Assembly: GCA_011364965.1 (NCBI GenBank)
Contig: RDOB01000003.1
Coordinates: 96,001-160,000, forward strand
Source: Candidatus Heimdallarchaeota archaeon
GTDB taxonomy: Archaea; Asgardarchaeota; Heimdallarchaeia; Hodarchaeales; Hodarchaeaceae
Length of the DNA stretch: 64,000 bases
Direction: 5' to 3'
A model generated the notes under the pieces. The model was given only the letters and a program-made list of their open reading frames with translations, was not told where the DNA came from and did no database searches. Shown here in pieces: positions 45,036-64,000 of the stretch (positions within the stretch are counted from its first letter, which is position 1; each line of letters opens with the position of its first letter). Position numbers and translations under genes: made by a program.

Positions 45036-45044
45036 AAAAGATCA

Positions 45045-46987: not shown

Positions 46988-47074
46988 ATTAATCCCCACC
47001 TATTCCAGTAACTATCAGGATTCTTCTAATTTTCCTTTCTATCTTCAGTTTCCTACTATTTCTATAATAAGTTA

Positions 47075-48015
47075 TTATTTTGTTCCTTTTTGAGACAGCA
47101 TTGGAAAATACAATTTCTTCACATATTCTTTGAGCATTCGCAAGTAGAAAAAAGAGGAATAGAAGTCCGAGCTGCTTCACACATGACAGTAATCCAGTTA
47201 AAGGGGATATTATTTGATTCAAAATCATAATATAAGGGAATCACTGTCTCCTCTAGGATCTCGTACAAGCTTATGGCGTCTGCCCAATTTTAAGCAGCTT
47301 GATTACTTTCCTCAATATTTTCGGGGTTGATGGCTCAGCCATTAACACCATTAAATCCTTCAACCCACCATCCATCAAGAATAGAGAGATTTGGGACAAA
47401 ATTCATACTTGCTTTCATTCCAGACGTCCCTGAAGCCTCATTATAGCGTTTTGGAGTATTTAGCCATACATCTACTCCCTATAATAATGCTTTGGTCGTC
47501 TTCAGATCATAATTATCAAGAAAAGCAATTCTGTAACCTAATTTTGCAATTTTTGCATGATTATAGATTTCTTGAATTAATACTTACCCCGAATCATCCA
47601 TTGGATGAGTTTTACCCGCAAAAATAAATTATACTGGTCTATATGGGTCTTCTATCATTTTTTGAAGTCGTTGAAAATCTGAAAAGAGTAAAGTTGCTCT
47701 CTTCTATGTAGCAAATCGTCTTGCAAATCCTATAGTTAAAGTATCTGGATCTAAAGTTAACCCATTTACCAAAGCTGTTTCTATATTCCAATAACAACTC
47801 TTCAAATTAGTACGAGCATTCTCCCGGATGACTTTGAACAGTCGGCCTGTTGCAGTTTTATGATACTCCCAGATTTGATAATCACTAGTAGTATGTCGAT
47901 CGAGCATCTCCTCCCAAAACTCTGATTCATCGTGATGCTCCAACCAATTTTGGTTCACCATTCTATACATATGTTGGTAGATTTCGGTAATAAAACTCGG
48001 AGCATGCACCCCATT
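47075..48015 (-). pseudogene. glgP: Alpha-glucan (glycogen/maltodextrin) phosphorylase, 5'-truncated, with several stops and frameshifts
   Basis: NGVHAP, TIGFARRFAT*KRATLLF, FAGKTHP, DVWLNTP, PLP motif [23 protein letters not shown]. Confidence 0.88.
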
Positions 48016-48056
48016 TTTTCGTTGTACATTGAGCTCATGCTGATCGGGGTCATGTA

Positions 48057-48296
48057 ATGATTGATTTACCTGGTTTGAAGACTGCAACACTTGATACCTA
48101 TACCTGTACGATTTATGGTTATACTGAATTTTATGCTGATCAACTTGGATTAGAAAACATAAAAAGTAGTGGACGATTCTTATCAAAGATATCTGATAGG
48201 GTTGATTATTCTACAAGATGGTGTTCAGACTGTGGTTCTTCAATCCCTCCTGAAGAAAAATTCTGTCCGAAATGTGGAAAGCAATTAAATTGGTGA
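48057..48296 (+). pseudogene. C-terminal zinc-ribbon fragment
   Basis: CSDCG...FCPKCG; abuts the truncated 5' end of glgP. Confidence 0.5.
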
Positions 48297-48502
48297 CTTT
48301 TTCTTTATTCCTTAGAAGGAACGTAAGCAAAACAGCTGTAATTGAAGATAGATCTTCCATTACTCGGAACCAAGCTCCTCTTAGAGAAGAAGAGGAATTA
48401 ATTGAATCTCTTTCGTTTTCTAATTATTTTGGAAATCGTCTCACTTGTCCAGTTTTAGAATTTGTTTCAATAAATGTTTAATTTCCAACTAGAATAGAAA
48501 AT

Positions 48503-49200
48503 CTAGAGCGATTTTTTTCGTTTAAACAGTATTAAGATGATGATTGCTGAAGATGAAATAATTAAAGGAGGCCAATCTGCTCTCGATGTTTTCACAGGAA
48601 TAACAACAAGAACAGTATCACTAATACTGTTTCCAGACTGATCGTATACTTTGCAGATATACGTATAATTACCAGGTGTTAATTCTTCAATCATTACTGT
48701 AATACTACTTCCATTCCAATTTCCAGATTCCATTAGAGAATTATTTCTCGTCTCTTGATACGAAGCAGGATGCAAATCAAATGGATTCCATGTAATTCTC
48801 TTTTCTATAATCCCTTCAACATATATGATGTCGAATGGATGATTTATACTAGGAGGAGTAGTGTCAATAACAGTTACTAAAACAGAGTTGCTAGCGTGAT
48901 TACCTGCATTATCATATAGTATACAGGTATACAGATAATCACCACATTGAAGACTATCGATACTAATCGTAATTGATTCTCCAAACCACGGTCCACTGAC
49001 AATTAGAATCCCATCCCTGTCTACTCGGAAGCTCTCTGCATTAAGGTCAAAAGGATTCCAGTTAAGGCTATTATTAAGTATACCCTCTTCATAAATTATA
49101 TCATCGGGATGATTGATAGTTGGAGGATTTTCATCTGAAATAATTACAACGACTGTATCTGTTATTGAATGTTCTGCTTCATCAAAAACTTCGATAATGA
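48503..49200 (-). pseudogene. 5'-truncated Ig-like repeat surface protein with C-terminal anchor
   Basis: Frame open from about 49200 with no start until TTG 48775; repeats PP(T/S)INHP.DI.Y.EG...WNPFDL...YD..GN; tail TM plus KRKK. Confidence 0.75.
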
Positions 49201-49757
49201 AACCATATAAATTAATCCTTTTTTTCGGTGTAGGATTTATTTTTGGGATTTTAAGAGAGAATTTAATTCAGGTTCTTATTGAATTGGCAATTCTACCGTC
49301 ATTGTATACTTATTCTCTTCATTTTTTACGAATTTTGTATTCGCCAATAGTAATAGGAATTGGATGGATTTTTGCATTTTATAACGGTATGATAGTTGGA
49401 GAACGGTATTTGAAGTCTACTAATCCTGTAAAAACCAGTTTTTTGGCTGCTATTTTTGTTATGTTGGTCTCTTTTCCGATTGAAGTTACAGTAGTTGCAA
49501 TGAATTGGTGGATTTGGTAAATCCTGGGAATGCCCTTATTCATGGAAATTCCTTTAATGACTCCATTTGGTTGGGGAACCGCAGCATTTATTTTCATTTT
49601 CTCTTTCAAGCTGATTGATCAAAGAATAGAGAGAAATCAAAACAAAATCTTAATATTTTTAGGTTTGATAATTCCTTTGATTGGAGTCCATTTCACCATA
49701 ATTTTTGTTCTAAGAACAGCTTTTGTTGCCTTAGGTAACTTAGGAATACTACTCTGA
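49197..49757 (+). pseudogene. Carotenoid biosynthesis protein (CruF/DUF422)-like membrane protein with an internal stop
   Basis: FGILRE, IGIGW, E..VAMNWWIW*...EIPL...FGW; TAA 49518-49520 is in frame with ORF 49530. Confidence 0.55.
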
Positions 49758-50408
49758 TTTTTCTGATGAATTAAAAGACTTCAACTTTTTCACTGGTACT
49801 CCGCCATATAAGCTATTAGCATCTAGTACCCAATTAGCAGGGACAGTAGATCCCATAGCGACAGTAGTATTATCTCCTATAATAACTCCTGGTAGAATTA
49901 CACAATATGCTCCAATGGTGACGTTTTTCCCGATTCTCAGTCGCTTTCTATACATCTTTTGACTTCGTATGTGGTGACCAGATACGATTGCACCAGTACC
50001 AATTAAAGAATTTTCCCCTACATCAATAAGATCTGGATCCCAAAGAGTTGTTAAGATTGAAACTCCTTTCCTTCGTTTGAATCCAAATAATTGATAAATG
50101 AAATCTGGGATAGGAGAGTGAATGAATAACTTTCTTGTTAAAGTGAGTGCTATATCTAGTGATGTAGCTTGAACAGTCCAGAGTATTAAATTTACTCCAG
50201 TTATTTCCCCTTCTTTAGTTCCCATGGCAATACGGGAAAGTTTATGAGCTGATGCTAATAAAACTAAACTCAATAAATATGTCACTGGAATTGAAATGAT
50301 TACAGAAGGCACTAATCCAAAAGCAAATGAATCAATTATTGTATAAACGAATAAAAACAAAATTAATAATGATAATGTCAAAAGCAATTGAATAGCAAAG
50401 AAAAGCAT
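49749..50408 (-). CDS. Membrane-anchored hexapeptide-repeat (LbH) acyltransferase
   Basis: DPDLIDVGENSLIG, IGKNVTIGAYCVILPGVIIGD, YGGVP; two N-terminal TM. Confidence 0.85.
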   Translation of the reverse strand: MLFFAIQLLLTLSLLILFLFVYTIIDSFAFGLVPSVIISIPVTYLLSLVLLASAHKLSRIAMGTKEGEITGVNLILWTVQATSLDIALTLTRKLFIHSPIPDFIYQLFGFKRRKGVSILTTLWDPDLIDVGENSLIGTGAIVSGHHIRSQKMYRKRLRIGKNVTIGAYCVILPGVIIGDNTTVAMGSTVPANWVLDANSLYGGVPVKKLKSFNSSEKSE

Positions 50409-50430
50409 AATTTACACCATTTTTCACTTA

Positions 50431-52092
50431 TCAGATCATTTCAGGGTTTGTAGAGGGGGCAAGATGACCAAATACTTCCTCTGCAATATTAATTGCACCA
50501 TCAAATACAGATCGTGTACCATTCCACGTTTTTAATTCCTTTGAGTAGGTTTTACAAAATCTAGTCAGAAATTCAGTTAATGTTCTTTGAAGCTCAGGAT
50601 CCTGTTTATTACTAAATAAGGCAGCTGAAACACCTGTGTTCTTCTCTTTATCAGTTAATATAAAATGATTTCCGTGACGTACAAGGTTAAGGTCTCCTTT
50701 CTCCTTCATAGTTTCATTCATAAATGAAGCAACCGCAGTTAAGGCACCAGATAATAAAGTGAGTTCCGTTGAGATATCTATCTTTTGAAAACTGTAATCG
50801 AAGATAGGTAATCCACCTTCTTCGATAACAAGTAACAATGTAAAGTCAAGAGGTTTGTAACTGTCAGATACCCAAAATAAGGGGAAAGCTGCTAAAATAG
50901 CTAAAATAGTGATTAAATAGGTAATTATCTCCACGTTCTCAATTTCTGGAGGTAAGATCCAATAACCGATAATATAACCGATTCCCAACCCTACAACAAG
51001 GGATATAAATCCCATGGCGTAATATCGTCCTAAACCATCACGAGGTGACAAGTCGGCCCATAAAGAGGAATCTAAAGTGGGATGTAAAAATGAAAATGAT
51101 ACACCAATGCTTAAAGCAGCTACTATAAAGCTATTCGGGGTTTTTTCTAAACCAAAAATCAATGAAGCAAAAACAATTCCGTAGATTGCTACAACAATTA
51201 AATTTTTCCGTCCGAATCTATCCGTAAAGTATCCAGCAGGTAAAATTGCAAGTAGGTCTCCTACTAAAACAATGAACCAAAAACTCTTATCGATAGGAAG
51301 ATCAAATTCTCCAACGGATGGTATTTCTATAATCCACGAAATATTTAGCACTTCTGCTCCAAGTTGTGAAAAACTTGCAAGAACAATTCCCAACATTGTG
51401 TAGAGGAGGATATGTGTACTAAGATAAGCACGTACTGATCTTCTATTTATAATTTTATGAAATCGAGTAGGCCATTTATCATTTTTCCAACTTAACATAT
51501 TACGAGTTAATAAATAAAAACATATTGTAAGCAAAATGCCAAATATGCCCACAATAGATAATATACTCACAAAACTGTGACTTAAATATTCTGTATCATT
51601 GAATCTAGATGAGTAACCTCCCCCAAAGAGAATTGCTACTATGCCTAGGATAATAAAAGAAAAGATAATGTACGAATATATTCTTCCGCGTTTCCACATA
51701 TCAGAAAGACCAGCGAACAGAGTACCACTACTTGTTAATAGTAAACTAAAGAAAAATGCCAAACTAGCTAAACCTATTATTAAAAAAAGGCCTTCTTGCA
51801 AGACAAATACGAAAAATATTACACTCAAGGAACTACCTGACATTCCAATTAGAATAGATGTTCGTAAATATCTTGGTTCTTGATCCAATTTAACCCCCGT
51901 ATAATAAATTACAAAAATCACTAATATAAGTATCAAGATCAAAAGTAATGCTCCTAATCCTGCAAATGGATTATTAGCAGAGCTTTCTATATAATTAATA
52001 ATATCAAAAGAATAGATCAACACTAATAATGTGGCTAATAACCAAGTGAAAACACTAGGAATAATGACAATTAATTTGGTTCTTAATTTCAT
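50431..52092 (-). CDS. MFS transporter fused to a C-terminal longin-like domain
   Basis: Motif A GYFTDRFGRK; soluble tail LLVIEEGGLPIFDYSF...LLSGALTAVASFM...LTEFLTRFCKTY..ELKTWNG...F. Confidence 0.82.
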   Translation of the reverse strand: MKLRTKLIVIIPSVFTWLLATLLVLIYSFDIINYIESSANNPFAGLGALLLILILILVIFVIYYTGVKLDQEPRYLRTSILIGMSGSSLSVIFFVFVLQEGLFLIIGLASLAFFFSLLLTSSGTLFAGLSDMWKRGRIYSYIIFSFIILGIVAILFGGGYSSRFNDTEYLSHSFVSILSIVGIFGILLTICFYLLTRNMLSWKNDKWPTRFHKIINRRSVRAYLSTHILLYTMLGIVLASFSQLGAEVLNISWIIEIPSVGEFDLPIDKSFWFIVLVGDLLAILPAGYFTDRFGRKNLIVVAIYGIVFASLIFGLEKTPNSFIVAALSIGVSFSFLHPTLDSSLWADLSPRDGLGRYYAMGFISLVVGLGIGYIIGYWILPPEIENVEIITYLITILAILAAFPLFWVSDSYKPLDFTLLLVIEEGGLPIFDYSFQKIDISTELTLLSGALTAVASFMNETMKEKGDLNLVRHGNHFILTDKEKNTGVSAALFSNKQDPELQRTLTEFLTRFCKTYSKELKTWNGTRSVFDGAINIAEEVFGHLAPSTNPEMI

Positions 52093-52205
52093 AACTTTGG
52101 CTTCCTTCTAATTGATTTTAATTTCTGTATGTACTCATTTTTTCCTTTTCTTTCAATCTTTTAGCTTCGATTATTTAATCCAATAACCATGAATTGTCAG
52201 ATAAA

Positions 52206-53843
52206 TTAACTCCTGAAAGATTTTGAAGGTAATAGAGGTCCAAATATTTCCTCTGCATACCCAATCCCTTTCTCAAACGCATTAGGCTGTCCAACCCACT
52301 TTTCAATTTCACTGTGATGAGATTTAGTAAATTTAACAAGAAATTGGTTCAAACTGCTTTGTAACTCAGCTGATGCTTTATTAGCAAAGATAGTGCCAAT
52401 AATATCTCCTTTAGAAGTGCTAATACGTGTTTGTACAATTAAAACATGACCATGACGCACTAAATCTAACGTTGCATGCTGTTCGTCTATTTCTTCAAAA
52501 AAAGTATCTATAGCAGAAAGTGCCCCTGCAACAAGAGCTAAATCTTTCTGCGAGATCTGTTCTTTATGATGGAAATCGTAATCAAATAGCAACATTCCAC
52601 TTCGCGTGACCAAGAGTAGATAGATATCCAAAGGGGGAAATGAATCGTTCATATAAAATAAAGGTAGGAGACTCAAGACTGCAAAGAAGAAAAGAATATA
52701 GCTTATATTACTAGAATCTGCTGTTATAAATGGATTGATGAATAATCCCAGCAATAATCCAGTTCCTATTCCTTGAAGAAGCATGACAAACCCTAGAGCA
52801 TTATAACGGCCAAGTGAATCTAAAGGACTTAAATCACACCATACGGTACTATCAATTGTCGGATGCATTGTAGAAAAGCTCCCACCCAAAATAAAAGCTG
52901 ATAAGTAAAACATGAAAGGATTATTACTTAGAGCTACAATTAATGCTGAAAGGACTATTCCGTAAACCCCGATGATAATCAAATTCTTCCTACCTATATG
53001 GTCAGCAATTAAACCATTAGGAAATACCAATAAAACATCTCCAAAGAAAACAAAAAGCCAAAAGAGCTTATCCTGATTAGCTTGAAATATGGAAAACCAG
53101 GGAGTATCAACTAAGAGGTTAGGAAATTTTATCTGACCTATTTCTGGAATTGTGATAAACGCAAAACCTAGCATCACATAAATAAAATAATGAGAAATTA
53201 AATAAGCTTTTGTAGGTCTTCGACTCAGAATTTTCTGTAACTTAGTTGGAAATTTATCATTAACCCACGGATCAATTGACCGACTGAATACATAAAAAAC
53301 TAAAGCTACAAGAATAGACAATAATCCTGTTAATATCAAAGGAAAATGGAAATCTAAAAAGTTAAATTCGGCAAATAACATAATTGTAATTACTGCAAAC
53401 ATACTCATGAATAATGCTCCTGCGTATAGACGTCCGCGATTATGTGCCTCAGAAAATCCAGAAAAGAATGAAGCTGTAGCTGTTGTACCCACTCCCAGAA
53501 AGAATCCCATGGCTGGAAGAGCAATAAGCAGAATACCGAAATAAATTGTTCCTAGAATTACTAGAAACAGAGAAATTCCAATTGATACCAAGGAGATTAC
53601 GATTAAGGATTTTAAATGTTCGGGATTCTTGTCAATAATCATCCCAGTTCCATATAAAGCACCTGTAGCTACTATAGCTGTAATAAGTAAGATAAAATAG
53701 GCTGGGTTAAAAGGAATGTCTCCAATAATCAATATCGGTGCTGTTTCAAGAAGATCAAGAGAGTAAACTAGCAAGAATATGGCTGTAATTAGCCACATCA
53801 TACTAATCGGGATCATTATTGTAAGAGATCTTAAAAATTTCAC
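52206..53843 (-). CDS. MFS transporter fused to a C-terminal longin-like domain (paralog)
   Basis: Motif A GLIADHIGRK; tail LLLVTRSGMLLFDYDF...LVAGALSAIDTFF...LNQFLVKF....EIEKWVG...F. Confidence 0.82.
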   Translation of the reverse strand: MKFLRSLTIMIPISMMWLITAIFLLVYSLDLLETAPILIIGDIPFNPAYFILLITAIVATGALYGTGMIIDKNPEHLKSLIVISLVSIGISLFLVILGTIYFGILLIALPAMGFFLGVGTTATASFFSGFSEAHNRGRLYAGALFMSMFAVITIMLFAEFNFLDFHFPLILTGLLSILVALVFYVFSRSIDPWVNDKFPTKLQKILSRRPTKAYLISHYFIYVMLGFAFITIPEIGQIKFPNLLVDTPWFSIFQANQDKLFWLFVFFGDVLLVFPNGLIADHIGRKNLIIIGVYGIVLSALIVALSNNPFMFYLSAFILGGSFSTMHPTIDSTVWCDLSPLDSLGRYNALGFVMLLQGIGTGLLLGLFINPFITADSSNISYILFFFAVLSLLPLFYMNDSFPPLDIYLLLVTRSGMLLFDYDFHHKEQISQKDLALVAGALSAIDTFFEEIDEQHATLDLVRHGHVLIVQTRISTSKGDIIGTIFANKASAELQSSLNQFLVKFTKSHHSEIEKWVGQPNAFEKGIGYAEEIFGPLLPSKSFRS

Positions 53844-53952
53844 GGATAAGATGCCTCAGGATTGCAGTTTGATTGAGGAAAAAAAGTCCAAAACTCTAAT
53901 TAAAAAATGCTTCTGTTAAATTAATTAATAGGATTCTTCCCAGAAACGGAAA

Positions 53953-55002
53953 ATGGTTAAAATGAACGATTTGGAATTATATAATTTAGTAAAAGAGCTT
54001 GCAGAAATACCAGGGCCGGTGGGTAGGGAATCTGAGGTTCAAAAATATCTTTCAATGGAATGGGAACAGAACGGGTTTGAGACCTCATATGATAAGGTTG
54101 GTAATTTATATGGAAAATCTTTTGGTTCTGGGAAACGTTGGGCTATCGTATCTCACGCGGATTCGATCGGATTTATTGTCCAGAAAATATTAAGAAATGG
54201 TTTCATTAAAGTTGCATTTAATACTGCGGCAACAAATCCGGATGCAAGATTTTTAGCGGGAACTCCAGTTAGATTTCTTACAAATGATAACAAAATGGTC
54301 ATTGGATATTTTGGATTAAGAAGTGGGCACTTAGCAGGAGTTGAAGGCAAGAGGAAACCTATTTTATTTGAGGATATGTTTATAGATGTTGGAGTAGATT
54401 CAAAAGAGGAAGTAAATTCTCTTGGTATCGATATAGGATCAGCTGCGGTATTTTATTCTCCTGTTTTCAAATCTCAAAGTAATATTGTTGGACCTTCAAT
54501 GGACAATCGGATAGGAGGTGCTATTCAATGTTTACTAGCAAAGGAAATTAATGCGCAAAATACCTCTTTGAACCTCCATTTAATTTCAACTGTTCAAGAG
54601 GAGATTGGTATGAAAGGTGCTGCAGCCGTGGCAAGAAATTATGAATACGATGGAGTAATTGTGCTTGATATAGGACTAACTGGGGATATACCAACTTCTA
54701 ATAAAGATAATCTTGACACTCGGCTAAAAGGGGGGCCAATAATTGTATATAAGGACTTCTCTATTCATTATTCAGTTGAAATTATACAGGAAATTGAGGA
54801 GTTAGCAAAGACAAATAATATCCCTTTTCAAAGAGCAGTATTTAAAAACTTCAATACTGATGGAGTTCACTTCTTCATGAATGGTTATCCTACAGTAATG
54901 CTTGCTATTCCCTGTCGATATACACATACTAATTTCGAAACTATAAGATTTATAGATGTGAAAAACACGTTGAGTTTATTAAAACTTATTATTACAGTTT
55001 AA
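53953..55002 (+). CDS. M42 family (TET) aminopeptidase
   Basis: HAD, MDNR, QEEIG, LDIG, RYTH. Confidence 0.9.
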   Translation: MVKMNDLELYNLVKELAEIPGPVGRESEVQKYLSMEWEQNGFETSYDKVGNLYGKSFGSGKRWAIVSHADSIGFIVQKILRNGFIKVAFNTAATNPDARFLAGTPVRFLTNDNKMVIGYFGLRSGHLAGVEGKRKPILFEDMFIDVGVDSKEEVNSLGIDIGSAAVFYSPVFKSQSNIVGPSMDNRIGGAIQCLLAKEINAQNTSLNLHLISTVQEEIGMKGAAAVARNYEYDGVIVLDIGLTGDIPTSNKDNLDTRLKGGPIIVYKDFSIHYSVEIIQEIEELAKTNNIPFQRAVFKNFNTDGVHFFMNGYPTVMLAIPCRYTHTNFETIRFIDVKNTLSLLKLIITV

Positions 55003-55045
55003 GCTTGCTTATTATAATTTAGAATACTTTTTAGCGTGAAAACTA

Positions 55046-56731
55046 ATGTTTATAACACCAGTTACAATGATAAAAATGGGAGGAAGCTTGATTACTTATA
55101 AAAATGATGAACAACGCATTCAGAAATATTTAAAGGAAATAGACCAGTTCCTGTCAGGAAAAGGATCTATTGATAATCTCTATACGACTATATGTGAACT
55201 CATGAATTTTGAAGTACTCAATAAGATCTTTGAGATCCTAAAAAGGTATATAACGGCCAATCCTGATAGAAAAATAATTTTAATACATGGTGCAGGGTCA
55301 ATTGGCCATTCGTTGGTCTTTTATCTAACTAAAGAGAAAAAAAATCTCGAATGCACTTTTCCAATTATAAAATTAGCTGTTGCAATTCAAAATCAAATAA
55401 TTATTAGTTCTGCAATTAAAATGGGATTGAACACGATTTCAATGCCGTCTCATAATGTAATGATAGGAGGATTTTCATCGTCGATCTCTTCAACTTATGT
55501 TAATAGCCCAGATTTATCCGTTTTGGAAGAAATATTATGTAATTCTAATGCGATTCCAGTTTTTTATGGTGATGTTGGATTTTCAAAACGTGGATGGAAA
55601 GTACTTTCTGGAGATATATACTCAAGTTTGCTTATTAGACGATTTAAAGGATTAAGAATTACCAAAGCCATATTTCTCACTAGAGTTGAGGAGAAAACAA
55701 CTGGAATCTATACTGAAGATCCAGTGAACAATACCGCGGAATTTATTTCACGAATAGAAGTTGAACAAACTTCAGTAAAGTGCTATAATGAACATAATAG
55801 ACTTGTCCAATTTAAGAATTATGAGAAAAAAGATGGAAAATTTGATGTTACGGGAGCTATGCAGGGGAAACTTGAAAATTTAATCGATTTGGCAAATAAT
55901 TTTACTAAATCATGGGTTATTGGAATAGATGAATTCTATGAAGCCTTAGAAGGCAAATCTGTTGGAACACGAATTTATAAGACCATTAAGGAAAATATAT
56001 TAATAAAGTTTCTTGGAACGGGAGATGCATTTAATTCAGAAGGATTTAAGAGTGCCTCAACACTTATAGAAACAGAAGGAAGGTATATTCTTCTGGATTG
56101 TGGTCCTCATACTTTATCTGCAATGAAAAAAGCATTTCTTCCAACGAATAACATAGATCTAATCTTAATAACGCATTTTCATGGAGATCATACAGCTGGA
56201 GTTCCTTTTATTCTTCTTGAATCTATGATTCTCAGCAAAAGAAATCATCCTTTAACTATTTGTGGTCCACCTGGCGTTCAAAATGTTATAAAAGCACTAT
56301 ATGAGGCATTATATTCTGAATTATCAACAAAACCACATTCATTTGACATAATATTCTTAGAAATTACTCCTGGTAAGCCAGTTTTCTTTCCCAACCTCAA
56401 GATTCAAGCTATTAAAATGCTTCACACCCCAGAAGCTCTGGGATACATACTGGAGGGAAAGAATATGAAATTAGCTTATTCTGGTGATACAGGGTGGACT
56501 GAATCCTTACTAGAATTGGTTGAGGGTACTGATCTTGCCATAATTGAGTGTAATTTCATTGACCAAGAACATGAATATCATTTAAATTTCCATCAAGTGA
56601 AAAAATTGGCCAAACTCACAAAACGACTTTTCCTTACACACATGGGAGAGGGGGTACGCGATGATCTTGAAGAGTACTTAGTAAATACAAATATCTTCAT
56701 TGCCCACGAAGGAAATATAGAAAGATTTTAA
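55046..56731 (+). CDS. Isopentenyl phosphate kinase-like (AAK) domain fused to an RNase Z-like MBL hydrolase
   Basis: KMGGSLIT, HGAGSIGH, PVFYGD, LSGD, DVTGAMQGK; then LGTGDAF, LDCG, THFHGDH, SGDT, THMG. Confidence 0.82.
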   Translation: MFITPVTMIKMGGSLITYKNDEQRIQKYLKEIDQFLSGKGSIDNLYTTICELMNFEVLNKIFEILKRYITANPDRKIILIHGAGSIGHSLVFYLTKEKKNLECTFPIIKLAVAIQNQIIISSAIKMGLNTISMPSHNVMIGGFSSSISSTYVNSPDLSVLEEILCNSNAIPVFYGDVGFSKRGWKVLSGDIYSSLLIRRFKGLRITKAIFLTRVEEKTTGIYTEDPVNNTAEFISRIEVEQTSVKCYNEHNRLVQFKNYEKKDGKFDVTGAMQGKLENLIDLANNFTKSWVIGIDEFYEALEGKSVGTRIYKTIKENILIKFLGTGDAFNSEGFKSASTLIETEGRYILLDCGPHTLSAMKKAFLPTNNIDLILITHFHGDHTAGVPFILLESMILSKRNHPLTICGPPGVQNVIKALYEALYSELSTKPHSFDIIFLEITPGKPVFFPNLKIQAIKMLHTPEALGYILEGKNMKLAYSGDTGWTESLLELVEGTDLAIIECNFIDQEHEYHLNFHQVKKLAKLTKRLFLTHMGEGVRDDLEEYLVNTNIFIAHEGNIERF

Positions 56732-56760
56732 GCTTAAAAAGAAATGCAAATGATATGAAT

Positions 56761-57009
56761 TCAGGTATTATCTGATTTAGGAGTTAGAAACCAGACGATA
56801 TTCTTCCTCTCGCCATCTTTTCCTGCAACAACTTTGTAACTCACTTTACCCTCCATCCTCATTTGTGTCAGAGCCATAGGTATCCGATCAGCACAATCTT
56901 GATTATAGATTTTCACTTCGTTCATTATTTCTTCGGTTGTTCCTTCATTCATATCAGCAAGAATGGTTAAAATCCACTTTTCAGTACCTCTGTACTCTTC
57001 GGTAACCAA
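56761..57009 (-). CDS. Small winged-helix protein
   Basis: ILTIL...TTEEI...ALTQMRMEGKV...WFL pattern; GGTGA RBS. Confidence 0.6.
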   Translation of the reverse strand: MVTEEYRGTEKWILTILADMNEGTTEEIMNEVKIYNQDCADRIPMALTQMRMEGKVSYKVVAGKDGERKNIVWFLTPKSDNT

Positions 57010-57286
57010 CTAATAATCACCGTTAAATGTTATCTAAACTTTCTACTCACTTCTATTAAATATACCCATTTGATTTGATATTTATTACATCGAAGTTAAT
57101 TGAAAACCAGAGTATCAATTAGAAATGAATAAATTCTATTGGAATTATCACCAAACTAATGAATATTGAATAAGCATGTTGTTGCTGAATTTTTTGTTGA
57201 TCATAATCCCAATCTAAAAATCCTATTATTAACAAAAGTTATTATAGAACCCAGATCAAAAAATATTATCAACTGGAGATAGAAGC

Positions 57287-57841
57287 GTGTCCAAAGAAAT
57301 TAAACATATATTGAAATTATTACTCCTTGGGGATGGAGCAGTAGGTAAAACATCCCTAATATTGCGCTATATTGAAAATAAATTTAAAGAAGAATATTCC
57401 ATGTCTCTGGGAGTTGATTTCTTAACAAAAACCGTTAAATTTATTGATGAAAATAACACACAAAGAACTGTTTCCCTGCAAATCTGGGATATCGCAGGCC
57501 AGGCACGTCACGTTTCTTACTCGCATCTCTATTTAAAAGGGGCTCAAGGTGCATTTTATGTGTTCGACTTAACCCGTAAAGAAACATTAATGCAAATTCA
57601 ATCAAGATGGCAATCTCAAGTAGCAAAAGTTTCTCCTCAATGCCTTTCAATTCTGATTGGTAACAAAGCAGATTTAAAGAAGGAACGGGATATTACTAAA
57701 TCTGAAGTAAATCAAATAAAACAATCCATGTATGCAATCGATTTTATTGAAACCTCTGCAAAAACTGGACTAAATGTTGATCAGGCGTTTTCAACGATGG
57801 CAGCTGCTATCTTAAATCTCAAAATAAAAAAATACCTTTGA
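57287..57841 (+). CDS. Rab-like small GTPase (Ras superfamily)
   Basis: G1 GDGAVGKT, SLGVDF, WDIAGQ, NKAD, ETSAK; no C-terminal Cys. Confidence 0.95.
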   Translation: MSKEIKHILKLLLLGDGAVGKTSLILRYIENKFKEEYSMSLGVDFLTKTVKFIDENNTQRTVSLQIWDIAGQARHVSYSHLYLKGAQGAFYVFDLTRKETLMQIQSRWQSQVAKVSPQCLSILIGNKADLKKERDITKSEVNQIKQSMYAIDFIETSAKTGLNVDQAFSTMAAAILNLKIKKYL

Positions 57842-57850
57842 GGGCTTTGT

Positions 57851-58621
57851 TTGTCACTACAAGACTTTAAAACCATTAAAGCGTTTTTTGTTTTCCAAAA
57901 AGAGAGCGGGAATACTTTATTTACACGCTCATATGAAAAAGAAGATTCTCAGACTCCAGATCCACATCTAGTTGTTGCTTTTTTGACTGCGATGTTCTCA
58001 TTCGCAAAATCTTCATCATTAAGTGATCTAAGAGTCGTAGATATGACTGACCTTCGTTTTTCCTTTATTGAACGTGAGGGTTTAGTCTTTTCAATTCTAG
58101 CATCTGCCTTAGTTAGTCCAATGGATTTACAGTTTAAACTTACTACAATTGCCAGTTTATTCCTAGCAGAATATGGAGATAAAATTAAAAAAATACAGCT
58201 AATAGATACAGAAATTTTCGAACCTTTTTCAGCTCAAGTTGACGAAATCTTTAAAGGCGAAACGAGAGAAATGCTAACCTCCTCAAAAAACGCTGCACTG
58301 TTCTATTTAAAGAAATTAATGCAACAAAACGATATTGGGGTAAGAGGGTGCATGATTGTTTCATTTACAGGTGATATTTTAATCGAACATAATATGGATC
58401 AAAAAAGAATGGCAGGAGCAATTCGATTATTGAATGTAAGCACATATATGAGAAATTTACGATATATGGTTGTTTCTTCTGAAGCTACTAATCTTGTTGC
58501 ATATAAGATTAGCGAAGGGCTATTATTATATGTTGATGGCGATCCCTCAACAGGTTTGGAGAATCTAGTTGTAAGAGTAGCAGAAACTGTCAACCAGATT
58601 AAAGAAATTATCCCACATTGA
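57851..58621 (+). CDS. Longin-roadblock/LC7 fusion protein
   Basis: N-half FVFQKESGNTLFTRSY...LVVAFLTAMFSFA...FEPF (longin); C-half GVRGCMIVSFTGDIL...LLLYV (roadblock). Confidence 0.78.
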   Translation: MSLQDFKTIKAFFVFQKESGNTLFTRSYEKEDSQTPDPHLVVAFLTAMFSFAKSSSLSDLRVVDMTDLRFSFIEREGLVFSILASALVSPMDLQFKLTTIASLFLAEYGDKIKKIQLIDTEIFEPFSAQVDEIFKGETREMLTSSKNAALFYLKKLMQQNDIGVRGCMIVSFTGDILIEHNMDQKRMAGAIRLLNVSTYMRNLRYMVVSSEATNLVAYKISEGLLLYVDGDPSTGLENLVVRVAETVNQIKEIIPH

Positions 58622-58652
58622 AATCATGATGATTTGGATAGGATAGAATAGT

Positions 58653-59111
58653 TTGTTTTCACTAGAAATAGCAGAATTAAAGGATATTCCCGAAATTTCA
58701 GATATTATCATTAAAGCATACGAACCTATTGGAAAACTGCTTTCTCGTCCCCCAGGAGCCTTAAATAATTTAGACAAAAAGTTAACTGATTCAGTTTCCG
58801 AGAATGGATTATATAAAATTCTAATGGATGCATCCAAAATTATAGGTACGTTATCTATTAGTTACATTAACGCAAATACCATTAAACTATTTCATTTTGC
58901 AATAACACCTAGTAAACAAAATCTGGGAGTTGGTTCATGGGCGATTTATGAGTTATTAAATCATTTGGAACCTAGTGTGAGAAAGGTCGTTCTTGAAGTA
59001 TATGCTAAAACCCCAAAAGCAAGAAGATTTTATGAAAAACACGGTTTCTCCATATATGGATCAAAAAAAATCAAAAATGAATTAATATACAAATTAAGTT
59101 ATGTAGTTTAA
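58653..59111 (+). CDS. GNAT acetyltransferase
   Basis: FAITPSKQNLGVG, ARRFYEKHGF. Confidence 0.88.
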   Translation: MFSLEIAELKDIPEISDIIIKAYEPIGKLLSRPPGALNNLDKKLTDSVSENGLYKILMDASKIIGTLSISYINANTIKLFHFAITPSKQNLGVGSWAIYELLNHLEPSVRKVVLEVYAKTPKARRFYEKHGFSIYGSKKIKNELIYKLSYVV

Positions 59112-59213
59112 ATATATGAATTCCTCATGAAAATATTATTTAAATTCAGAATTACTATTGCGTTATTGAAAGCTTTCATTATTTTGGAATCAATCTTGAA
59201 TTGAGGGTTCTTA

Positions 59214-59687
59214 ATGAAATATGCTGATTTGATAACTAAACCTCCGTTTAATATATTTCCATATAAAAATGCTCCTTCTATAATTGATAAATTAGAATAT
59301 CTTGGGGAAGAATCGTCTCCGTATGAAATTTCTCCTGGAACAGATTTGTGTATCAGTGATACATATTATTCATTAGGTTTTCTTACATATTTACACGCTT
59401 TTGGGAGAGTTGTAAAAAAGGATGATAAATGGTTACTTGACCCTCAAGGGAAGTCATTACCTGATAAACCTTATAGATTTACTTTAATATCTGATGCAGT
59501 AGAAATTTTAAACGTATTGCAAAATGGGCCATTAACAATAGAAGAGATTGCTGAAGCTGTAGAAAATATCTCAGAGGAGAAAATTGAGATTTATTTGAAT
59601 ATCCTCAACTTATTATCTCAAAAGGGAAGAGTTAATCAAGTTTCTAAAGGGTGGGACGCTACATTTCAGTTAATTGAGTGGGATTAA
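59214..59687 (+). CDS. Hypothetical protein, probably tandem winged helix
   Basis: C-terminal ILNVLQNGPLTIEEIAEAV...YLNIL...GRV; similar N-half FLTYL..FGRV. Confidence 0.6.
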   Translation: MKYADLITKPPFNIFPYKNAPSIIDKLEYLGEESSPYEISPGTDLCISDTYYSLGFLTYLHAFGRVVKKDDKWLLDPQGKSLPDKPYRFTLISDAVEILNVLQNGPLTIEEIAEAVENISEEKIEIYLNILNLLSQKGRVNQVSKGWDATFQLIEWD

Positions 59688-59789
59688 TTCCCACTAATTT
59701 TATTCCAATCTGAGGAATTATAATGTATATTTTTAGACTTGGGATAAATTATACCTCTTAACGAATTAATAGATAAACAGTGAATTTAG

Positions 59790-60857
59790 ATGGAAATAAT
59801 AGAGCAAGAAGTAATTAAAGAAACGCAAAGAGAATTATCAGAACTAATTGGAGTATCTGGACGGGAATCGAAGATAGTTGAATATATTCAAGAGAAAATC
59901 AGAAATTTCGTAGATGAAATGTATATCGATCCATTGGGATCTTTGATAGCTATTCAAAAGGGAACTGAAGAGAAAAATCGGATTATGTTTGACGCCCATA
60001 TTGATGAAATAGGATTAATGATAAATCATATTGAAGAAAATGGATTTCTTCGATTTTGTTTAATAGGAGGATGGGATACGCGAATTTTACTAGGAGCATC
60101 AGTCAAAATAGTTTCAGAAACAGGTGAAATCCTCCCAGGGATAATTGGTTCTACACCTCCACATTTATTATCAGAAAAAGAAAGGAATACTTTGGTTGAA
60201 GTAGACCAAATGTTCATTGATGTGGGTTTAAATAGCAAAAAGGAAATAGAAGAGAAGGGTATACAATTAGGTTCAGTAGGAACACTATATAACCCTTTTG
60301 TAGAGTTTCCTGGTGATTTGATTAGAGGAAAAGCATTTGACGATAGAACTGGCGTAAATATCCTTATTCAGATTATTAAAAAGTTCTCTGCTATTAAAAT
60401 TAGTGATACTCTCCTTTTTAGTTTTACTAGTCAAGAAGAAATTGGAGGAAGAGGAGCCGCTACTGCTGCATATTCATTAAATCCAACAATGGCAATTGCA
60501 ATTGAAAATACGACAGCAGGGGATGTTCCAGGGATTAAAGCTTCCCAATGCCCTGCATATATAGGAAAAGGTCCCGCAATTTCTGTAGCTGACCGATCAT
60601 TAATAGCCAATCAAGGAATTAATGACCGCTTGAAACAAAATGCAGAATTTGAAAATATACCATACCAAATAAAAAAGCCAATCTTTGGTGGAACTAATGC
60701 AGGAAGAATTCATCAGACTCGTGGTGGAATTCCCTCTTCTGTTGTGTCTGTTCCATGCCGCTACATACATTCTTCAACTTCCCTACTCTCCTTAACAGAT
60801 ATTCATAATACTATAAGACTTATTTCAGCTTTTATTCTGAATCCAGCTAAAGTTTAA
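59790..60857 (+). CDS. M42 family (TET) aminopeptidase
   Basis: AHIDEIG, AFDDR, QEEIG, IEN, RYIH. Confidence 0.92.
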   Translation: MEIIEQEVIKETQRELSELIGVSGRESKIVEYIQEKIRNFVDEMYIDPLGSLIAIQKGTEEKNRIMFDAHIDEIGLMINHIEENGFLRFCLIGGWDTRILLGASVKIVSETGEILPGIIGSTPPHLLSEKERNTLVEVDQMFIDVGLNSKKEIEEKGIQLGSVGTLYNPFVEFPGDLIRGKAFDDRTGVNILIQIIKKFSAIKISDTLLFSFTSQEEIGGRGAATAAYSLNPTMAIAIENTTAGDVPGIKASQCPAYIGKGPAISVADRSLIANQGINDRLKQNAEFENIPYQIKKPIFGGTNAGRIHQTRGGIPSSVVSVPCRYIHSSTSLLSLTDIHNTIRLISAFILNPAKV

Positions 60858-60948
60858 GCCCTGAAAAATAAATTTGAGGAAAAGACATAATAATAAAACC
60901 TTTTAGAGGAAATAGTCTAGATTCCTTATCCTATAAGGTGAGGTTAAA

Positions 60949-63333
60949 ATGGCCGAAGAGCCTGTTTTAAGAGATCTTAGAAACCTTAAATCGACTGAGT
61001 TTCAAATTAAATGGAATGCAATCCACAATATCAGTAAATATCTTCAATCTGACCTGAAGCCTGATGATGTCCGCTATAGAATGATTATTAAATCTTTTCT
61101 TCCAATGACGAAAGATCCAGATGAAAAAATACGAGAGATTGTCCTATCAACGCTTCTTAAAGTATTAGAAGATAAAAAACAAACTGAAGCTCTAGTAGCT
61201 CAAAGTCTAGCTGATTCAAACCCTGGAATTCGATCTTTAGCTTTAGAATGGCTTCGAAGTCAAAATCACCCTAGCGTAACAAAATACACAATAGTCGCGT
61301 TATCTGACCCATCTGAGGTCGTACGCAAAACAGCAATTGAAACTGTGATTAAAAATCAATTTGAAGGAATAGAAACTCAACTTCTAAACATGCTCGGAAC
61401 CGAATCGGGAGGATTAAGAAGACAAGTAATTTATGCGTTGGGAAAATTAAAAACGAGTCAAGCAATTGGGGCTTTGATAGATATTATGCAAAATCCCGAG
61501 TATGATGATTGGACTCGAAACCAAGCGAGTTCAGCTCTCGATCATATGGAAGGAGAAGGGATTATTGAGCCCTTTCTTAATAATTTAATAGATCCGAATC
61601 CCTATGTACGAGAAACAGCTGCAGCTTACCTTAACAAGCACAAAGACGATATATTACCTTTCATATTGAAAACGAGTCGTCTAGATTTGATAGGCTTATT
61701 ACAATATGGAACAGATAATACAAAACAGGACTTCAGTTCTATAATATCAAGCTTGAAAAAACAAATGGAATTTGCATTTAAAGATCTGGAATCCCGCATT
61801 ATAGCCAAAGAGCAAATTAAATTTGCAAAATTAGCGGATGAGTTTCAATTCTCCGAAATTGCGCTGAAAACATTGATTGAAAAGGTATTAAATCTCCAAC
61901 TAATTGAACTTCCCAATAATGCTTATTTAACAGAAACTGGTCTTCTTAATCTATTAACAGAGGAATTTAATACCCATTTATCGCTATTTCTTCCTGAAAT
62001 AATTAAAAAGAAACCTTTCAAAGAGGTTCCCTTAGTCAATTTAGAGGAAATCATAATAAAGATACCCAATCTTGTAAAATTAACCGAGAAATTCTTTATT
62101 CATCAAAATTTTTATACAGAACTTCAAGAAGCTTTCTCTAAAACAGGAATGTTAAATATTCAAAATATAATTGAAAAATTATCTGTAAAGAAAGAAATTA
62201 TTGAAACGGAACTAATTCCAAATCTATATTCCGAAGAAGAAAGCTGGATTAATTCTAAAAATGAATTTATTACTCCAGAGTATTTAGATAAGAAGATTAA
62301 GGCAATCTTGGACGATAAAGGGATCCTTTCACTAAAGCGTTTGCTACATGATCTATCGAATCCGAAAATTTCAGAACAATACATGATTGATAGGATTAAT
62401 TCTCGTTATTCAGGAACTTGGTTAAAAGATCTGAAAGTGTTCATCAGTGAAAAACAATTCTTATATATAAAAAAGAATTCCTCAAGGCTTGATGAAGCAC
62501 TAGTTTCTCCATTAATTAAAACCATTGATATAAAATTTCCAGAATTCTTATCCAACTTGCAAAAAGTACTTGATGTTCATACGTACCAAACACGATCAGG
62601 AACTATAATCACAATGGAAAGTTTGCATCCCTCTTTACAACAAGAAATTTTGGGCAAAGGATACATAAACATTGATGATTTTATTAAACTCAATGACCTG
62701 CAAACACAAAAAGAATCGATTAAACCATCAATAATGGATTTTATTAATCAAGAATTCTCAGGACGAATAGATCCCTTAGGAAAATATTTCTTTACTGAAG
62801 ACCTTATTATGAAAGTAAAGAATGAAATAGAAGCACAATCTCGTTTAAATTTCAATATACTTGCTTACAGAATGGAATTATCCAAAGATATCCTTCTAAT
62901 ACTAATACAACAAATCTTATTCGTCAGAGGATTTAGAAACAAAATAGGGGAGTATATTACAGATAAAGGAATTCAAAATGAACTTAATAGCATTTTGGAG
63001 AGTACTCAAGAATTTAAATTATCCGAATTCTATGATATATTAGAAATTACAGAGGACAGGGAAAAAGAGGATCTAGTAAGAGAAATTCTCTCTGAAGACA
63101 CAAGATTATTCATTACGAAAGATCAACTCATGTTTATAACTAAGAAAAGGGCTATTAATAACCTCTTTCGCTATTTGAAGGACCCTATGCAACAAACTCG
63201 CGACATGATCCCTTGGAATGAACTTTCAAAAGCAATGAGACTAACAGAGGAAGAATTGAAAGCAATGCTCAATTCTCTAGTCCAGAATCAATTCCTGCCT
63301 GGAACCATCATTAAAAATGGTTATAAACCTTAA
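60949..63333 (+). CDS. HEAT-repeat protein with UFL1-like winged-helix repeats and a C-terminal PCI-like winged helix
   Basis: HEAT units DPDEKIR, DPSEVVR, DPNPYVR; repeats NEFITPEYL..KIK..L...G.LSL and GEYITDKGIQNEL; tail IPWNELSKAMRLTEEELKAML..LV....LPGTI. Confidence 0.7.
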   Translation: MAEEPVLRDLRNLKSTEFQIKWNAIHNISKYLQSDLKPDDVRYRMIIKSFLPMTKDPDEKIREIVLSTLLKVLEDKKQTEALVAQSLADSNPGIRSLALEWLRSQNHPSVTKYTIVALSDPSEVVRKTAIETVIKNQFEGIETQLLNMLGTESGGLRRQVIYALGKLKTSQAIGALIDIMQNPEYDDWTRNQASSALDHMEGEGIIEPFLNNLIDPNPYVRETAAAYLNKHKDDILPFILKTSRLDLIGLLQYGTDNTKQDFSSIISSLKKQMEFAFKDLESRIIAKEQIKFAKLADEFQFSEIALKTLIEKVLNLQLIELPNNAYLTETGLLNLLTEEFNTHLSLFLPEIIKKKPFKEVPLVNLEEIIIKIPNLVKLTEKFFIHQNFYTELQEAFSKTGMLNIQNIIEKLSVKKEIIETELIPNLYSEEESWINSKNEFITPEYLDKKIKAILDDKGILSLKRLLHDLSNPKISEQYMIDRINSRYSGTWLKDLKVFISEKQFLYIKKNSSRLDEALVSPLIKTIDIKFPEFLSNLQKVLDVHTYQTRSGTIITMESLHPSLQQEILGKGYINIDDFIKLNDLQTQKESIKPSIMDFINQEFSGRIDPLGKYFFTEDLIMKVKNEIEAQSRLNFNILAYRMELSKDILLILIQQILFVRGFRNKIGEYITDKGIQNELNSILESTQEFKLSEFYDILEITEDREKEDLVREILSEDTRLFITKDQLMFITKKRAINNLFRYLKDPMQQTRDMIPWNELSKAMRLTEEELKAMLNSLVQNQFLPGTIIKNGYKP

Positions 63334-63360
63334 TTAATTGGTTTTGGAGAATTATACTCA

Positions 63361-64000
63361 ATGGAAAAACTTTTACATATTATAGTTGATCATAGAGAAC
63401 CTAAGGGTTTGAAAAATCGATTAAGAAAATTAGGTATGAGTATTGAAGAAAAACAGCTAGAAATTGCTGATTTCATTATCTCAGATCAAGTTGCATGTGA
63501 AAGGAAGACAGGAATCGATTTGATTGCCTCAATAATGGACAATCGATTATTTGAACAGATAGATCGATTAATTGAGACATATGATCAACCGATATTGATA
63601 CTTGAGGATTTTCCTTCGGCATTCGATCGAGTGGAATGGAAAAAACGTAAAAAACACGTATATGGAGCCCTCACGTATATTTTTTTGAGACGTCAAGTTC
63701 CAGTAGTTCCAACATCCAAGATCGCTGAAACAGCTATAGTTCTGAATCGAATAGCTTCATGGGTTCAAGAAGAACACGAGGATCCAGTGATTGCCAGAAA
63801 ATCTCCCAGAAAAAAATCATTACACGATAATCAGTTATATTTTCTTCAAGGGTTGCATAAGACAGGTAAAAAGAAAGCAGACATTTTACTCAATCAATTT
63901 AAAACACCCGAGGGAGTAATTAGTGCAATACTCGATTCAGAGATTATTTACACTCGAACTGGAAATCCAAAAGGAGTAAAAGGAAGATTTGGTGATTTAA
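63361..64000 (+). CDS. xpf: ERCC4/XPF structure-specific endonuclease (short form, runs off the window)
   Basis: Translated by hand: IIVDHRE, ADFII, CERKT..DL..SI.D.RLFEQ, HhH-like LQGLHKTGKKKA. Confidence 0.88.
   Translation, partial: MEKLLHIIVDHREPKGLKNRLRKLGMSIEEKQLEIADFIISDQVACERKTGIDLIASIMDNRLFEQIDRLIETYDQPILILEDFPSAFDRVEWKKRKKHVYGALTYIFLRRQVPVVPTSKIAETAIVLNRIASWVQEEHEDPVIARKSPRKKSLHDNQLYFLQGLHKTGKKKADILLNQFKTPEGVISAILDSEIIYTRTGNPKGVKGRFGDL

Follow-up and report, generated by a model that had tools for sequence, protein, structure and literature searches.

The stretch of DNA considered here (hereafter the window) spans 64,000 nucleotides of the genome of Candidatus Heimdallarchaeota archaeon and corresponds to G000:C11:96001-160000, G000 being a host genome of 2.97 Mb in 16 contigs that is 87% complete. 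Between window positions 49749 and 60857 it carries genes for two MFS transporters ending in a longin domain, two TET-type aminopeptidases, a small Rab-like GTPase plus a two-domain longin-roadblock protein, which we call LonRB. With moderate confidence we regard this block, from a genus of the Hodarchaeales, as vertically inherited, collinear and composed of several transcription units, among which only the GTPase-LonRB bicistron, possibly together with the adjacent GNAT acetyltransferase, is functionally coupled. Judging from gene order in related genomes, the GTPase and LonRB genes are a conserved two-gene unit and the only unit here that behaves as a functional pair, and the link of this pair to the transporters and peptidases appears indistinguishable from ordinary shared gene order. 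The genes of the block, as obtained from the open reading frame (ORF) listing and from Pfam and NCBIfam scans, are the following:

49749..50408, minus strand: membrane-anchored hexapeptide-repeat acyltransferase (Pfam Hexapep, 45.1 bits)
50431..52092, minus strand: MFS1-longin, 12 transmembrane (TM) segments plus C-terminal longin (MFS_1, 56.7 bits)
52206..53843, minus strand: MFS2-longin, paralog of MFS1 (MFS_1, 46.6 bits)
53953..55002, plus strand: TET1, M42 aminopeptidase, divergent from MFS2 (Peptidase_M42, 216.7 bits)
55046..56731, plus strand: fusion of amino-acid-kinase (IPK-like) and MBL (RNase-Z-like) domains, AAK-MBL (Pfam and NCBIfam scans)
56761..57009, minus strand: small 82-aa ORF, possibly winged helix (no Pfam or NCBIfam match; Atlas lead only)
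57287..57841, plus strand: Rab-like small GTPase (Pfam Ras, 153.3 bits)
57851..58621, plus strand: LonRB, longin plus roadblock two-domain protein of 256 aa (AlphaFold2 (AF2) model and fold matches)
58653..59111, plus strand: GNAT acetyltransferase (Acetyltransf_1, 40 bits)
59214..59687, plus strand: 157-aa protein, possible helix-turn-helix (HTH) protein (sub-threshold HTH_5, 18.8 bits)
59790..60857, plus strand: TET2, M42 aminopeptidase (Peptidase_M42, 312.9 bits)

The block thus reads as a minus-strand run (acyltransferase, MFS1, MFS2), a plus-strand run (TET1, AAK-MBL), the minus-strand 82-aa ORF and a second plus-strand run (GTPase, LonRB, GNAT, 157-aa protein, TET2). This inventory agrees with the first-pass annotation as to both MFS-longins (MFS_1 above its cut-off of 33.4 bits for both, with a longin-fold tail modelled for MFS1), both TET aminopeptidases (Peptidase_M42 cut-off 23.2 bits; metal motifs kept), the Rab-like GTPase (with Rab1 among its best solved relatives), the longin-roadblock fusion (a longin half and a roadblock half in the AF2 model), the GNAT and the 109-bp divergent gap between TET1 and MFS2 (between 53843 and 53953). 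The acyltransferase and the AAK-MBL fusion are additions to that annotation. Two winged-helix proteins had also been listed; their ORFs are present, whereas the winged-helix calls, derived from the sub-threshold HTH_5 match and from Atlas leads, are tentative.

In the window LonRB begins 9 bp past the GTPase stop codon. The GTPase is found immediately upstream of LonRB, on the same strand, in all 17 orthologous loci of the genus (LonRB identity 68-82%), and because the gaps are only about 9-27 bp, the two genes are likely to be co-transcribed. A look through sequencing runs for window positions 51000-60900 listed no RNA run, and one run of unknown kind contained 0.20 of the words. The same arrangement is seen at paralogous LonRB loci: a GTPase paralog is immediately upstream in five of five loci taken from the G-numbered genomes (26-30% identity for LonRB, 44-48% for the GTPase). 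Among a further set of 17 loci, from named records, 16 show it as well and the 17th ends at a contig edge; four of these 17 repeat loci of the former five, and the named records returned by the related-locus search are of Hodarchaeales type only. In G000 itself, which has 54 Ras-family matches, the best BLAST paralog of the window GTPase (46%, 147 bits; the next one is at 41%, 139 bits) adjoins the only LonRB paralog, which fits a duplication of both genes as one unit. Across the phylum the LonRB profile has matches with E of at most 1e-8 in 293 of 301 genomes, a figure that includes matches to single domains. Among 29 loci outside the genus, a GTPase stands directly upstream of LonRB in three, from genomes G022 (family f2), G256 (f29) and G299 (f30). 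In G022 (L028 642-2831) the GTPase is followed by two tandem LonRB genes with paralog-like identity (28-32%), which could represent a two-subunit (heterodimeric) version of the platform.

The GTPase matches Pfam Ras well above the cut-off of 21.6 bits, and its best solved relatives are Rab1A/B (E 3.6e-33 to 1e-31), with Thor-Rab (7ezb) at 9e-29. Motifs G1 (GDGAVGKT), G3 (WDIAGQ, including the catalytic Gln), G4 (GNKxD) and G5 (TSAKTG) are intact and invariant across 18 aligned sequences, and at the switch-I Thr position the orthologs carry Ser (SLGVDF), the paralogs Thr. The C-terminus (...LNLKIKKYL) lacks the Cys prenylation motif of eukaryotic Rabs. With 184 aa the protein consists of the G domain alone; the Rag-type C-terminal roadblock domain is absent, and Gtr1_RagA scores 26.6 bits versus 153.3 bits for Ras. 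By these sequence criteria the GTPase is Rab-like, not Rag-like.

The AF2 model of LonRB, built on a 16-sequence alignment (pLDDT 80.1, pTM 0.66), displays longin topology (beta-beta-alpha-beta-beta-beta-alpha-alpha) in residues 9-135 and roadblock topology (alpha-beta-beta-alpha-beta-beta-beta-alpha) in residues 143-251, as assigned by DSSP. In fold comparison (VIA) the C-terminal half is closest to MglB (Z 15.9, root-mean-square deviation (rmsd) 2.1, 117 aligned residues) and MK-D1 Roadblock3 (Z 15.8), followed by LAMTOR2 (Z 14.8) and the Rag C-terminal domain (Z 14.7). The N-terminal half matches Sec22b (Z 15.3), VAMP7 (14.5), synbindin (14.3) and Fuzzy LD1 (12.9). With the whole chain as a query, Foldseek ranks Fuzzy, BLOC-3 chain 8zwc_B and Mon1-Ccz1 chains first (7q3e_C, 8zwc_B, 8c7g_C and 9lol_B; E 1.8e-7 to 3.1e-7). 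The sole Pfam match is Fuz_longin_1, at 20.8-22.6 bits and below the cut-off of 26.1. No Pfam family, Robl_LC7 included, matches the C-terminal half up to E 10, and one distant member of the LonRB family, P0097, matches Robl_LC7 at E 0.0046, below the cut-off. No DENN family matches LonRB at E 0.01 or better in the Pfam scan. At the position of the GP motif of FLCN/SMCR8/NPRL2-type longins LonRB has an invariant Gly but no Pro; in a class of Asgard longins this motif, located before strand 2 and next to the arginine finger, has been tied to FLCN-type GTPase-activating proteins (GAPs) in the accessible text of a recent study (Traffic 2025, PMC12290439). Automatic naming at JGI labels the LonRB orthologs 'predicted regulator of Ras-like GTPase activity (Roadblock/LC7/MglB family)'. 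Fused roadblock/longin chains are already known, since PDB entry 8yqg is the longin domain of a Lokiarchaeota 'Roadblock-Longin protein'.

Taken as a pair, the two genes most likely encode a switch plus its platform regulator. The two LonRB domains would associate into an intramolecular pseudo-dimer, a 'platform' of the longin/roadblock type that would bind the switch face of the neighbouring GTPase and control its nucleotide state. In this capacity the single chain would take the role that dimers binding one GTPase have in MglA-MglB, TRAPP-Ypt1, Mon1-Ccz1-Ypt7 and Ragulator-Rag, families summarised in the available text of PMC10933270. LonRB might act as an exchange factor, like the longin platforms of Mon1-Ccz1, TRAPP and Ragulator, or as a GAP, like MglB for MglA. 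Since the folds alone do not decide, our rough apportioning leans towards exchange factor, though short of an even chance, places GAP not far behind and leaves plain effector as an unlikely third role.

The pair shares features with several known systems and differs from each of them. As in MglA-MglB of Myxococcus and Thermus, the GTPase gene adjoins the gene of a roadblock-fold regulator, and it is MglB that the C-terminal half of LonRB resembles. However, the window GTPase is Rab-like rather than MglA-like, and LonRB is a single longin-roadblock chain, whereas MglB is a roadblock homodimer acting as a GAP. The tri-longin Rab exchange factors (Mon1-Ccz1, Fuzzy-Inturned/CPLANE and HPS1-HPS4/BLOC-3) provide the best Foldseek matches of LonRB and its Pfam Fuz_longin_1 match, and their client, too, is Rab-like; LonRB resembles their first two domains. 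Unlike them, it has two domains in 256 aa instead of three, the domains are arranged differently (rmsd about 16 over both), and while the tri-longin factors are heterodimeric, the window has no second LonRB-like gene. Liu et al. (bioRxiv 10.1101/2020.10.19.343400), in the portion of that preprint available, describe most Asgard eukaryote-signature genes as lying outside conserved neighbourhoods, and also an Asgard operon in which a DENN protein is encoded together with a Rab-like GTPase and a LAMTOR1-like roadblock protein, which they propose as an exchange-factor module. As a conserved Asgard neighbourhood joining a Rab-like GTPase with roadblock-superfamily proteins, that operon is similar to the pair described here, but the window has no roadblock gene ahead of the GTPase on the same strand, and LonRB lacks a DENN match. 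Compared by text description, the LonRB pair may be one of the asCOGs of Liu et al. In the literature on Asgard longin, roadblock and GTPase proteins and on MFS-longins we found no account of a GTPase-LonRB pair or of an MFS-longin fusion, although the supplementary tables of Liu et al. could list both.

Several observations weigh against the interpretation that the GTPase-LonRB pair is a functional unit and the only one in the block. Outside the Heimdall-group families a GTPase adjoins the LonRB homolog in none of 26 loci, and the pairing is therefore lineage-limited. Of the 20 such loci that have flanks of 3.5 kb, nine show a Ras-family gene 1-3.3 kb upstream of the LonRB homolog, and in two annotated loci cupin, eIF-1A and NGN genes stand between the two. 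Moreover, a quick 26-row tree of the GTPases does not recover the ortholog and paralog clades as sisters, leaving the fork unresolved, and joins the ortholog clade, at 83% SH-aLRT, to a GTPase on a long branch without any LonRB neighbour. In the approximately unbiased (AU) test, holding all LonRB-adjacent GTPases as one clade costs 0.17 lnL (p-AU 0.50) and is not rejected; tree and test together are compatible with co-duplication of the two genes, without proving it. Within the genus the pair is accompanied by AAK-MBL and the small ORF as constantly as its two genes accompany each other (17/17), and judging from the genus genomes alone there may be a wider unit that includes them. Finally, an aminopeptidase of the MH clan, of one family or the other, adjoins the MFS operon in 10 of the 16 readable relatives, which is weakly suggestive of a real MFS-aminopeptidase link.

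The large family f14 (L127, L129 and others) has a conserved run of its own, in which a Ras-family GTPase is followed by cupin, eIF-1A, an NGN-domain protein (Spt5-like, about 250 aa), a 250-aa LonRB homolog and one or two acyl-CoA dehydrogenases.

The aminopeptidase beside the MFS operon bears on an alternative in which the block holds two separate links with no signalling connection between them: a metabolic unit, with MFS proteins that would import or export a substrate and adjoining aminopeptidases that would process peptides, and the GTPase-LonRB switch. This we consider unlikely. Apart from the divergent layout across 109 bp and the occurrence of the GTPase-LonRB pair on its own elsewhere, it draws on the slot between the MFS operon and AAK-MBL, which in 16 readable relatives contains an M42 peptidase in seven, a non-orthologous M28 peptidase in three and no peptidase in six. 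The hint of a link comes from the replacement of M42 by M28 in the same slot: an M28 aminopeptidase of 405 aa takes the exact place of TET1 in L007 (9607-10824, genome G008), L010 and L012, and in L012 it is on the MFS strand. G000 has no close homolog of this M28 protein (best match 29% over 177 aa). However, the slot is empty in those six relatives, no peptidase stands beside the MFS-longin paralogs (0/8), the MFS sequences offer no pointer to peptides, and the adjacency counts come from a single genus, the members of which are not independent.

Both M42 proteins are predicted to be ordinary cytosolic aminopeptidases of TET type. Their mutual identity is 28%. When aligned to solved M42 enzymes, both retain the motifs H-x-D, D, EE, D and H; TET1 matches MJ0555 (E 1.4e-44) and TET2 matches 5ds0 (E 9.5e-76). 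TET2 is present downstream in 14 of 15 readable loci and missing in G001 and G016. With four full M42 genes in G000, two within 7 kb are mildly unusual (about 0.03 by a rough estimate), yet one of them is often missing in relatives. A third M42 gene of G000, on contig C14 (L047 9103-11859), immediately follows genes for a Ras-family GTPase and a TPR/zinc-ribbon protein. On contig C9 (L048 8795-11109) an M20 peptidase gene is oriented divergently from the gene of the window GTPase's second-closest paralog. A general TET-GTPase link was considered and rejected as coincidence, the adjacency of the third M42 and its GTPase being found in none of 20 orthologous loci of relatives.

A single nutrient-sensing circuit, as put forward in the first-pass annotation from the proximity of transport, peptide hydrolysis and a GTPase, seems to us very unlikely. 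In such a circuit the MFS-longins would sense or carry the peptides or amino acids made by the TET enzymes and recruit LonRB and the GTPase through their longin tails, in the manner of transporter-Ragulator/FLCN-Rag assemblies at the lysosome. In its favour, all parts occur within 11 kb and stay together across the genus, the MFS tail is a cytoplasmic longin that the LonRB profile detects, aminopeptidases of two families of the MH clan occur beside the MFS operon, and at least one M42 or M28 gene is kept in the block in 15 of the 16 relatives with a readable MFS-side slot, the sixteenth (L024) ending before the TET2 position. To compare gene order within the genus, we took 20 stretches out of 17 of its genomes and placed 22 proteins of the window on them. 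In nearly all stretches the order is kept both upstream (PP-loop ATPase, TPR protein, class-V aminotransferase, acyltransferase, MFS1, (MFS2), (peptidase)) and downstream (AAK-MBL, small ORF, GTPase, LonRB, (GNAT), (HTH), TET2, HEAT, ERCC4). Collinearity runs from g39114 to ERCC4, that is, from three genes upstream to two genes downstream of the block, and takes in the unrelated class-V aminotransferase, TPR, HEAT and ERCC4 genes. Because the whole block is collinear, unrelated genes included, same-genus synteny carries no specific information on a circuit.

Paralogous loci and sister families are more telling, and there the proposed partners part company. At paralogous GTPase-LonRB loci, MFS-longin, TET, AAK-MBL, small ORF, GNAT and HTH genes are absent within 6-10 kb from all five loci of the first set and all 17 of the second. 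Likewise, M42, M28 and LonRB genes are found at none of eight paralogous MFS-longin loci (33-45% identity, 17-20 kb each), two of which have a Ras-like match within 8 kb, about the chance level. Co-location of transporter, peptidase and GTPase module beyond the general gene order was thus not observed (0/8, 0/17 and 0/20 at paralogous loci). In G022, 80-85% complete, an MFS-longin co-exists with only paralog-like LonRB: the 7.6 kb upstream of the pair encode thiolase, dehydrogenase and HerA-like proteins, MFS-longin is on other contigs, and neither the contigs with the pair nor those with MFS-longin show any of the other block genes. Conversely, G023, of the same family (f2) and likewise 80-85% complete, has a LonRB ortholog (43-45%), and a full-length MFS-longin was not found in it with the query used; downstream of its LonRB are genes for a helical protein, a rhodanese and DnaJ, not GNAT, HTH or TET2, and the upstream side is cut. 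The 10.8 kb upstream of the pair in G256 contain no MFS, TET or AAK-MBL gene, nor does the G299 contig, which is only 5.4 kb long. Added to this are the empty peptidase slots, a GTPase without the Rag-type roadblock domain and MFS proteins without a peptide or amino-acid signature.

The first-pass annotation had itself allowed that longins and GTPases are abundant enough for the clustering to be due to chance, and the counts in G000 support this for single co-occurrences: besides the 54 Ras-family matches, at least 24 ORFs have longin/roadblock-like domains according to our own narrow profiles. With so many such genes, one GTPase or an extra longin near an MFS pair is not unusual. The likeness to lysosomal nutrient sensing is also loose. 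As in Rag-Ragulator-FLCN/GATOR1 with SLC38A9, transporter, roadblock, longin and small GTPase folds occur near each other; unlike there, the GTPase lacks the Rag C-terminal domain, the transporter belongs to the MFS, the longin matches TRAPP, SNARE and Fuzzy among the matches listed, and outside the block the parts do not stay linked.

The MFS-longins appear to be transporter-fold membrane proteins that show a TRAPP/SNARE-like longin domain in the cytoplasm. MFS1 and MFS2 are 37% identical, and the Pfam match covers mainly residues 275-413. A hydropathy window gives 12 hydrophobic segments in MFS1, and the tail is placed in the cytoplasm because the K/R-rich loops are the odd ones. The C-terminal 150 residues of MFS1, modelled by AF2 on an alignment of 23 homologous tails, have longin topology (pLDDT 81.5, pTM 0.76) and are most similar to Trs23/TRAPPC4 (2j3t_D; Z 15.5, rmsd 2.9, 130 aligned), followed by Sec22b (Z 13.7), Fuzzy LD1 (13.4) and Bet5 (3cue_C; 13.3). 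The LonRB profile detects the tail at E 4e-11. In Pfam the tails give only sub-threshold matches to Sybindin and ScpB, Sybindin scoring 15.8 bits against a cut-off of 25 for MFS2 and not matching MFS1. The TRAPP core longins Bet5/TRAPPC1 and Trs23/TRAPPC4 are among the best fold matches, but the window longin is a C-terminal fusion to a 12-TM MFS protein and Sybindin stays below its cut-off. At the GP-motif position before strand 2, G-L-P stands in place of G-P in the MFS1 tail, and Pro is absent from MFS2; FLCN/NPRL2-type chains are not among the listed fold matches of the tail, the motif of which is only G-x-P. Pfam and NCBIfam scans of the MFS proteins revealed no peptide or amino-acid transporter signature. 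MFS1 is present in 21 of 21 genomes of the genus; MFS2 is missing from one clade, not being found in L014-L017 (L019 is unreadable there, as it ends inside MFS1). The 75 clusters of MFS-longins are all annotated only as 'MFS transporter' and, bar a few mislabelled records, bear Hodarchaeales-type names alone; by these data the family is limited to Hodarchaeales.

The same kind of longin also forms the C-terminus of a TPR protein (G000:C11:68069-70180, L004), a MinD/ParA-like ATPase (C12:41575-43275, L005) and an 863-aa protein without Pfam match (C13:143003-145591, L003), and the ATPase has an adjoining GTPase gene (C12:40093-40584). As the longin ends the TPR protein and the ATPase as well, the MFS tail looks like a general docking module that is not specific to this neighbourhood. 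The proposal that the tails are membrane receptors pairing with LonRB or the GTPase, with the state of the transporter setting the nucleotide state of the GTPase, receives very little credence from us.

Equally doubtful is the remaining alternative, in which LonRB does not regulate its neighbour but serves as a scaffold, a SNARE/adaptor-like membrane factor or an effector of the GTP form, with adjacency reflecting co-expression only: its N-terminal domain is as near to the SNARE longins Sec22b and VAMP7 as to exchange-factor longins, most Asgard families examined have a LonRB homolog without adjacent GTPase, the MK-D1 GTPase genes are generally outside operons with roadblock or longin genes according to the accessible text of Tran et al. 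2024 (PMC10933270), who also solved structures of Asgard Rab-like and roadblock proteins, and the available text of a 2026 paper (PMC13408092) describes a protein presumed to be an exchange factor for MglA as really an effector. Against this, the pair has survived an old duplication and persists in four families, the best match of the roadblock half is MglB, which binds a GTPase, and the automatic JGI name of the orthologs is that of a predicted regulator of Ras-like GTPases.

The other genes of the block differ in constancy. The acyltransferase, with two N-terminal hydrophobic segments and weak NCBIfam matches that are all below cut-off, is the last gene of the MFS operon, 23 bp from MFS1, which it adjoins in most relatives, with varying copy number. 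A second, divergent acyltransferase copy (26-31% identity) occurs between LonRB and GNAT in L009 (5326-5925), L010 (4896-5468), L012 (11263-11952), L013 (5700-6362) and L026 (9222-9539), so that an acyltransferase of one kind or another often follows LonRB. In the 561-aa AAK-MBL the IPK-like domain scores 81.9 bits, under the IPK cut-off of 120, and the MBL domain covers positions 2-151 and 200-282 of the RNase-Z model, with the stretch between unmatched, and is below the curated RNase Z cut-off. A proper IPK is encoded elsewhere (G000:C9:307876); no RNase Z reaches the curated cut-off in the 87%-complete G000, where the AAK-MBL fusion is the best match. AAK-MBL adjoins small ORF, GTPase and LonRB in 17 of 17 orthologous loci, in one of them as a partial gene. 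The 82-aa ORF, divergent from the GTPase across a 277-bp gap, is kept in place in all 17 (52-67% identity), and an Atlas lead connects it to a FUR-type cluster at 0.91. GNAT, 31 bp past LonRB, is a variable member, not found in place in four of the 15 relatives readable beyond LonRB (L014-L017). The 157-aa ORF, with HTH_5 below the cut-off of 22 bits and Atlas scores of 0.86 or less, is present in only part of the relatives. Beyond TET2, genes for a 794-aa HEAT-repeat protein and an ERCC4 nuclease (window 60949-63999) follow with short gaps, their place being as conserved as that of the block genes. On the other side, the class-V aminotransferase gene is separated from the acyltransferase/MFS operon by about 5 kb (window about 44611-49700) without counterpart in the collinear blocks of relatives. 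This segment may be an insertion specific to G000; it contains a 437-aa ORF without Pfam match, small ORFs, one of them ending in a zinc-ribbon-like CxxC...CxxC, and two small membrane ORFs.

A wider nutrient-sensing circuit would matter much more than a two-gene unit, but the comparative data do not carry it. If the MFS tails were indeed receptors, they would form a prokaryotic 'transceptor' comparable to SLC38A9-Ragulator-Rag or PQLC2-C9orf72, made from Rab-, TRAPP- and MglB-type parts, in an archaeal order often placed nearest to eukaryotes. As to the GTPase-LonRB pair, Asgard genomes encode dozens of small GTPases and dozens of longin/roadblock proteins, and gene order is mostly silent on which belong together, as stated in the accessible text of Tran et al. 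2024. Adjacent through an old duplication and in four Heimdall-group families, and with a LonRB shaped like the front part of eukaryotic exchange factors of Rab7/Rab23/Rab32 type, the pair would be a concrete matched set of GTPase and regulator that can be expressed and assayed.

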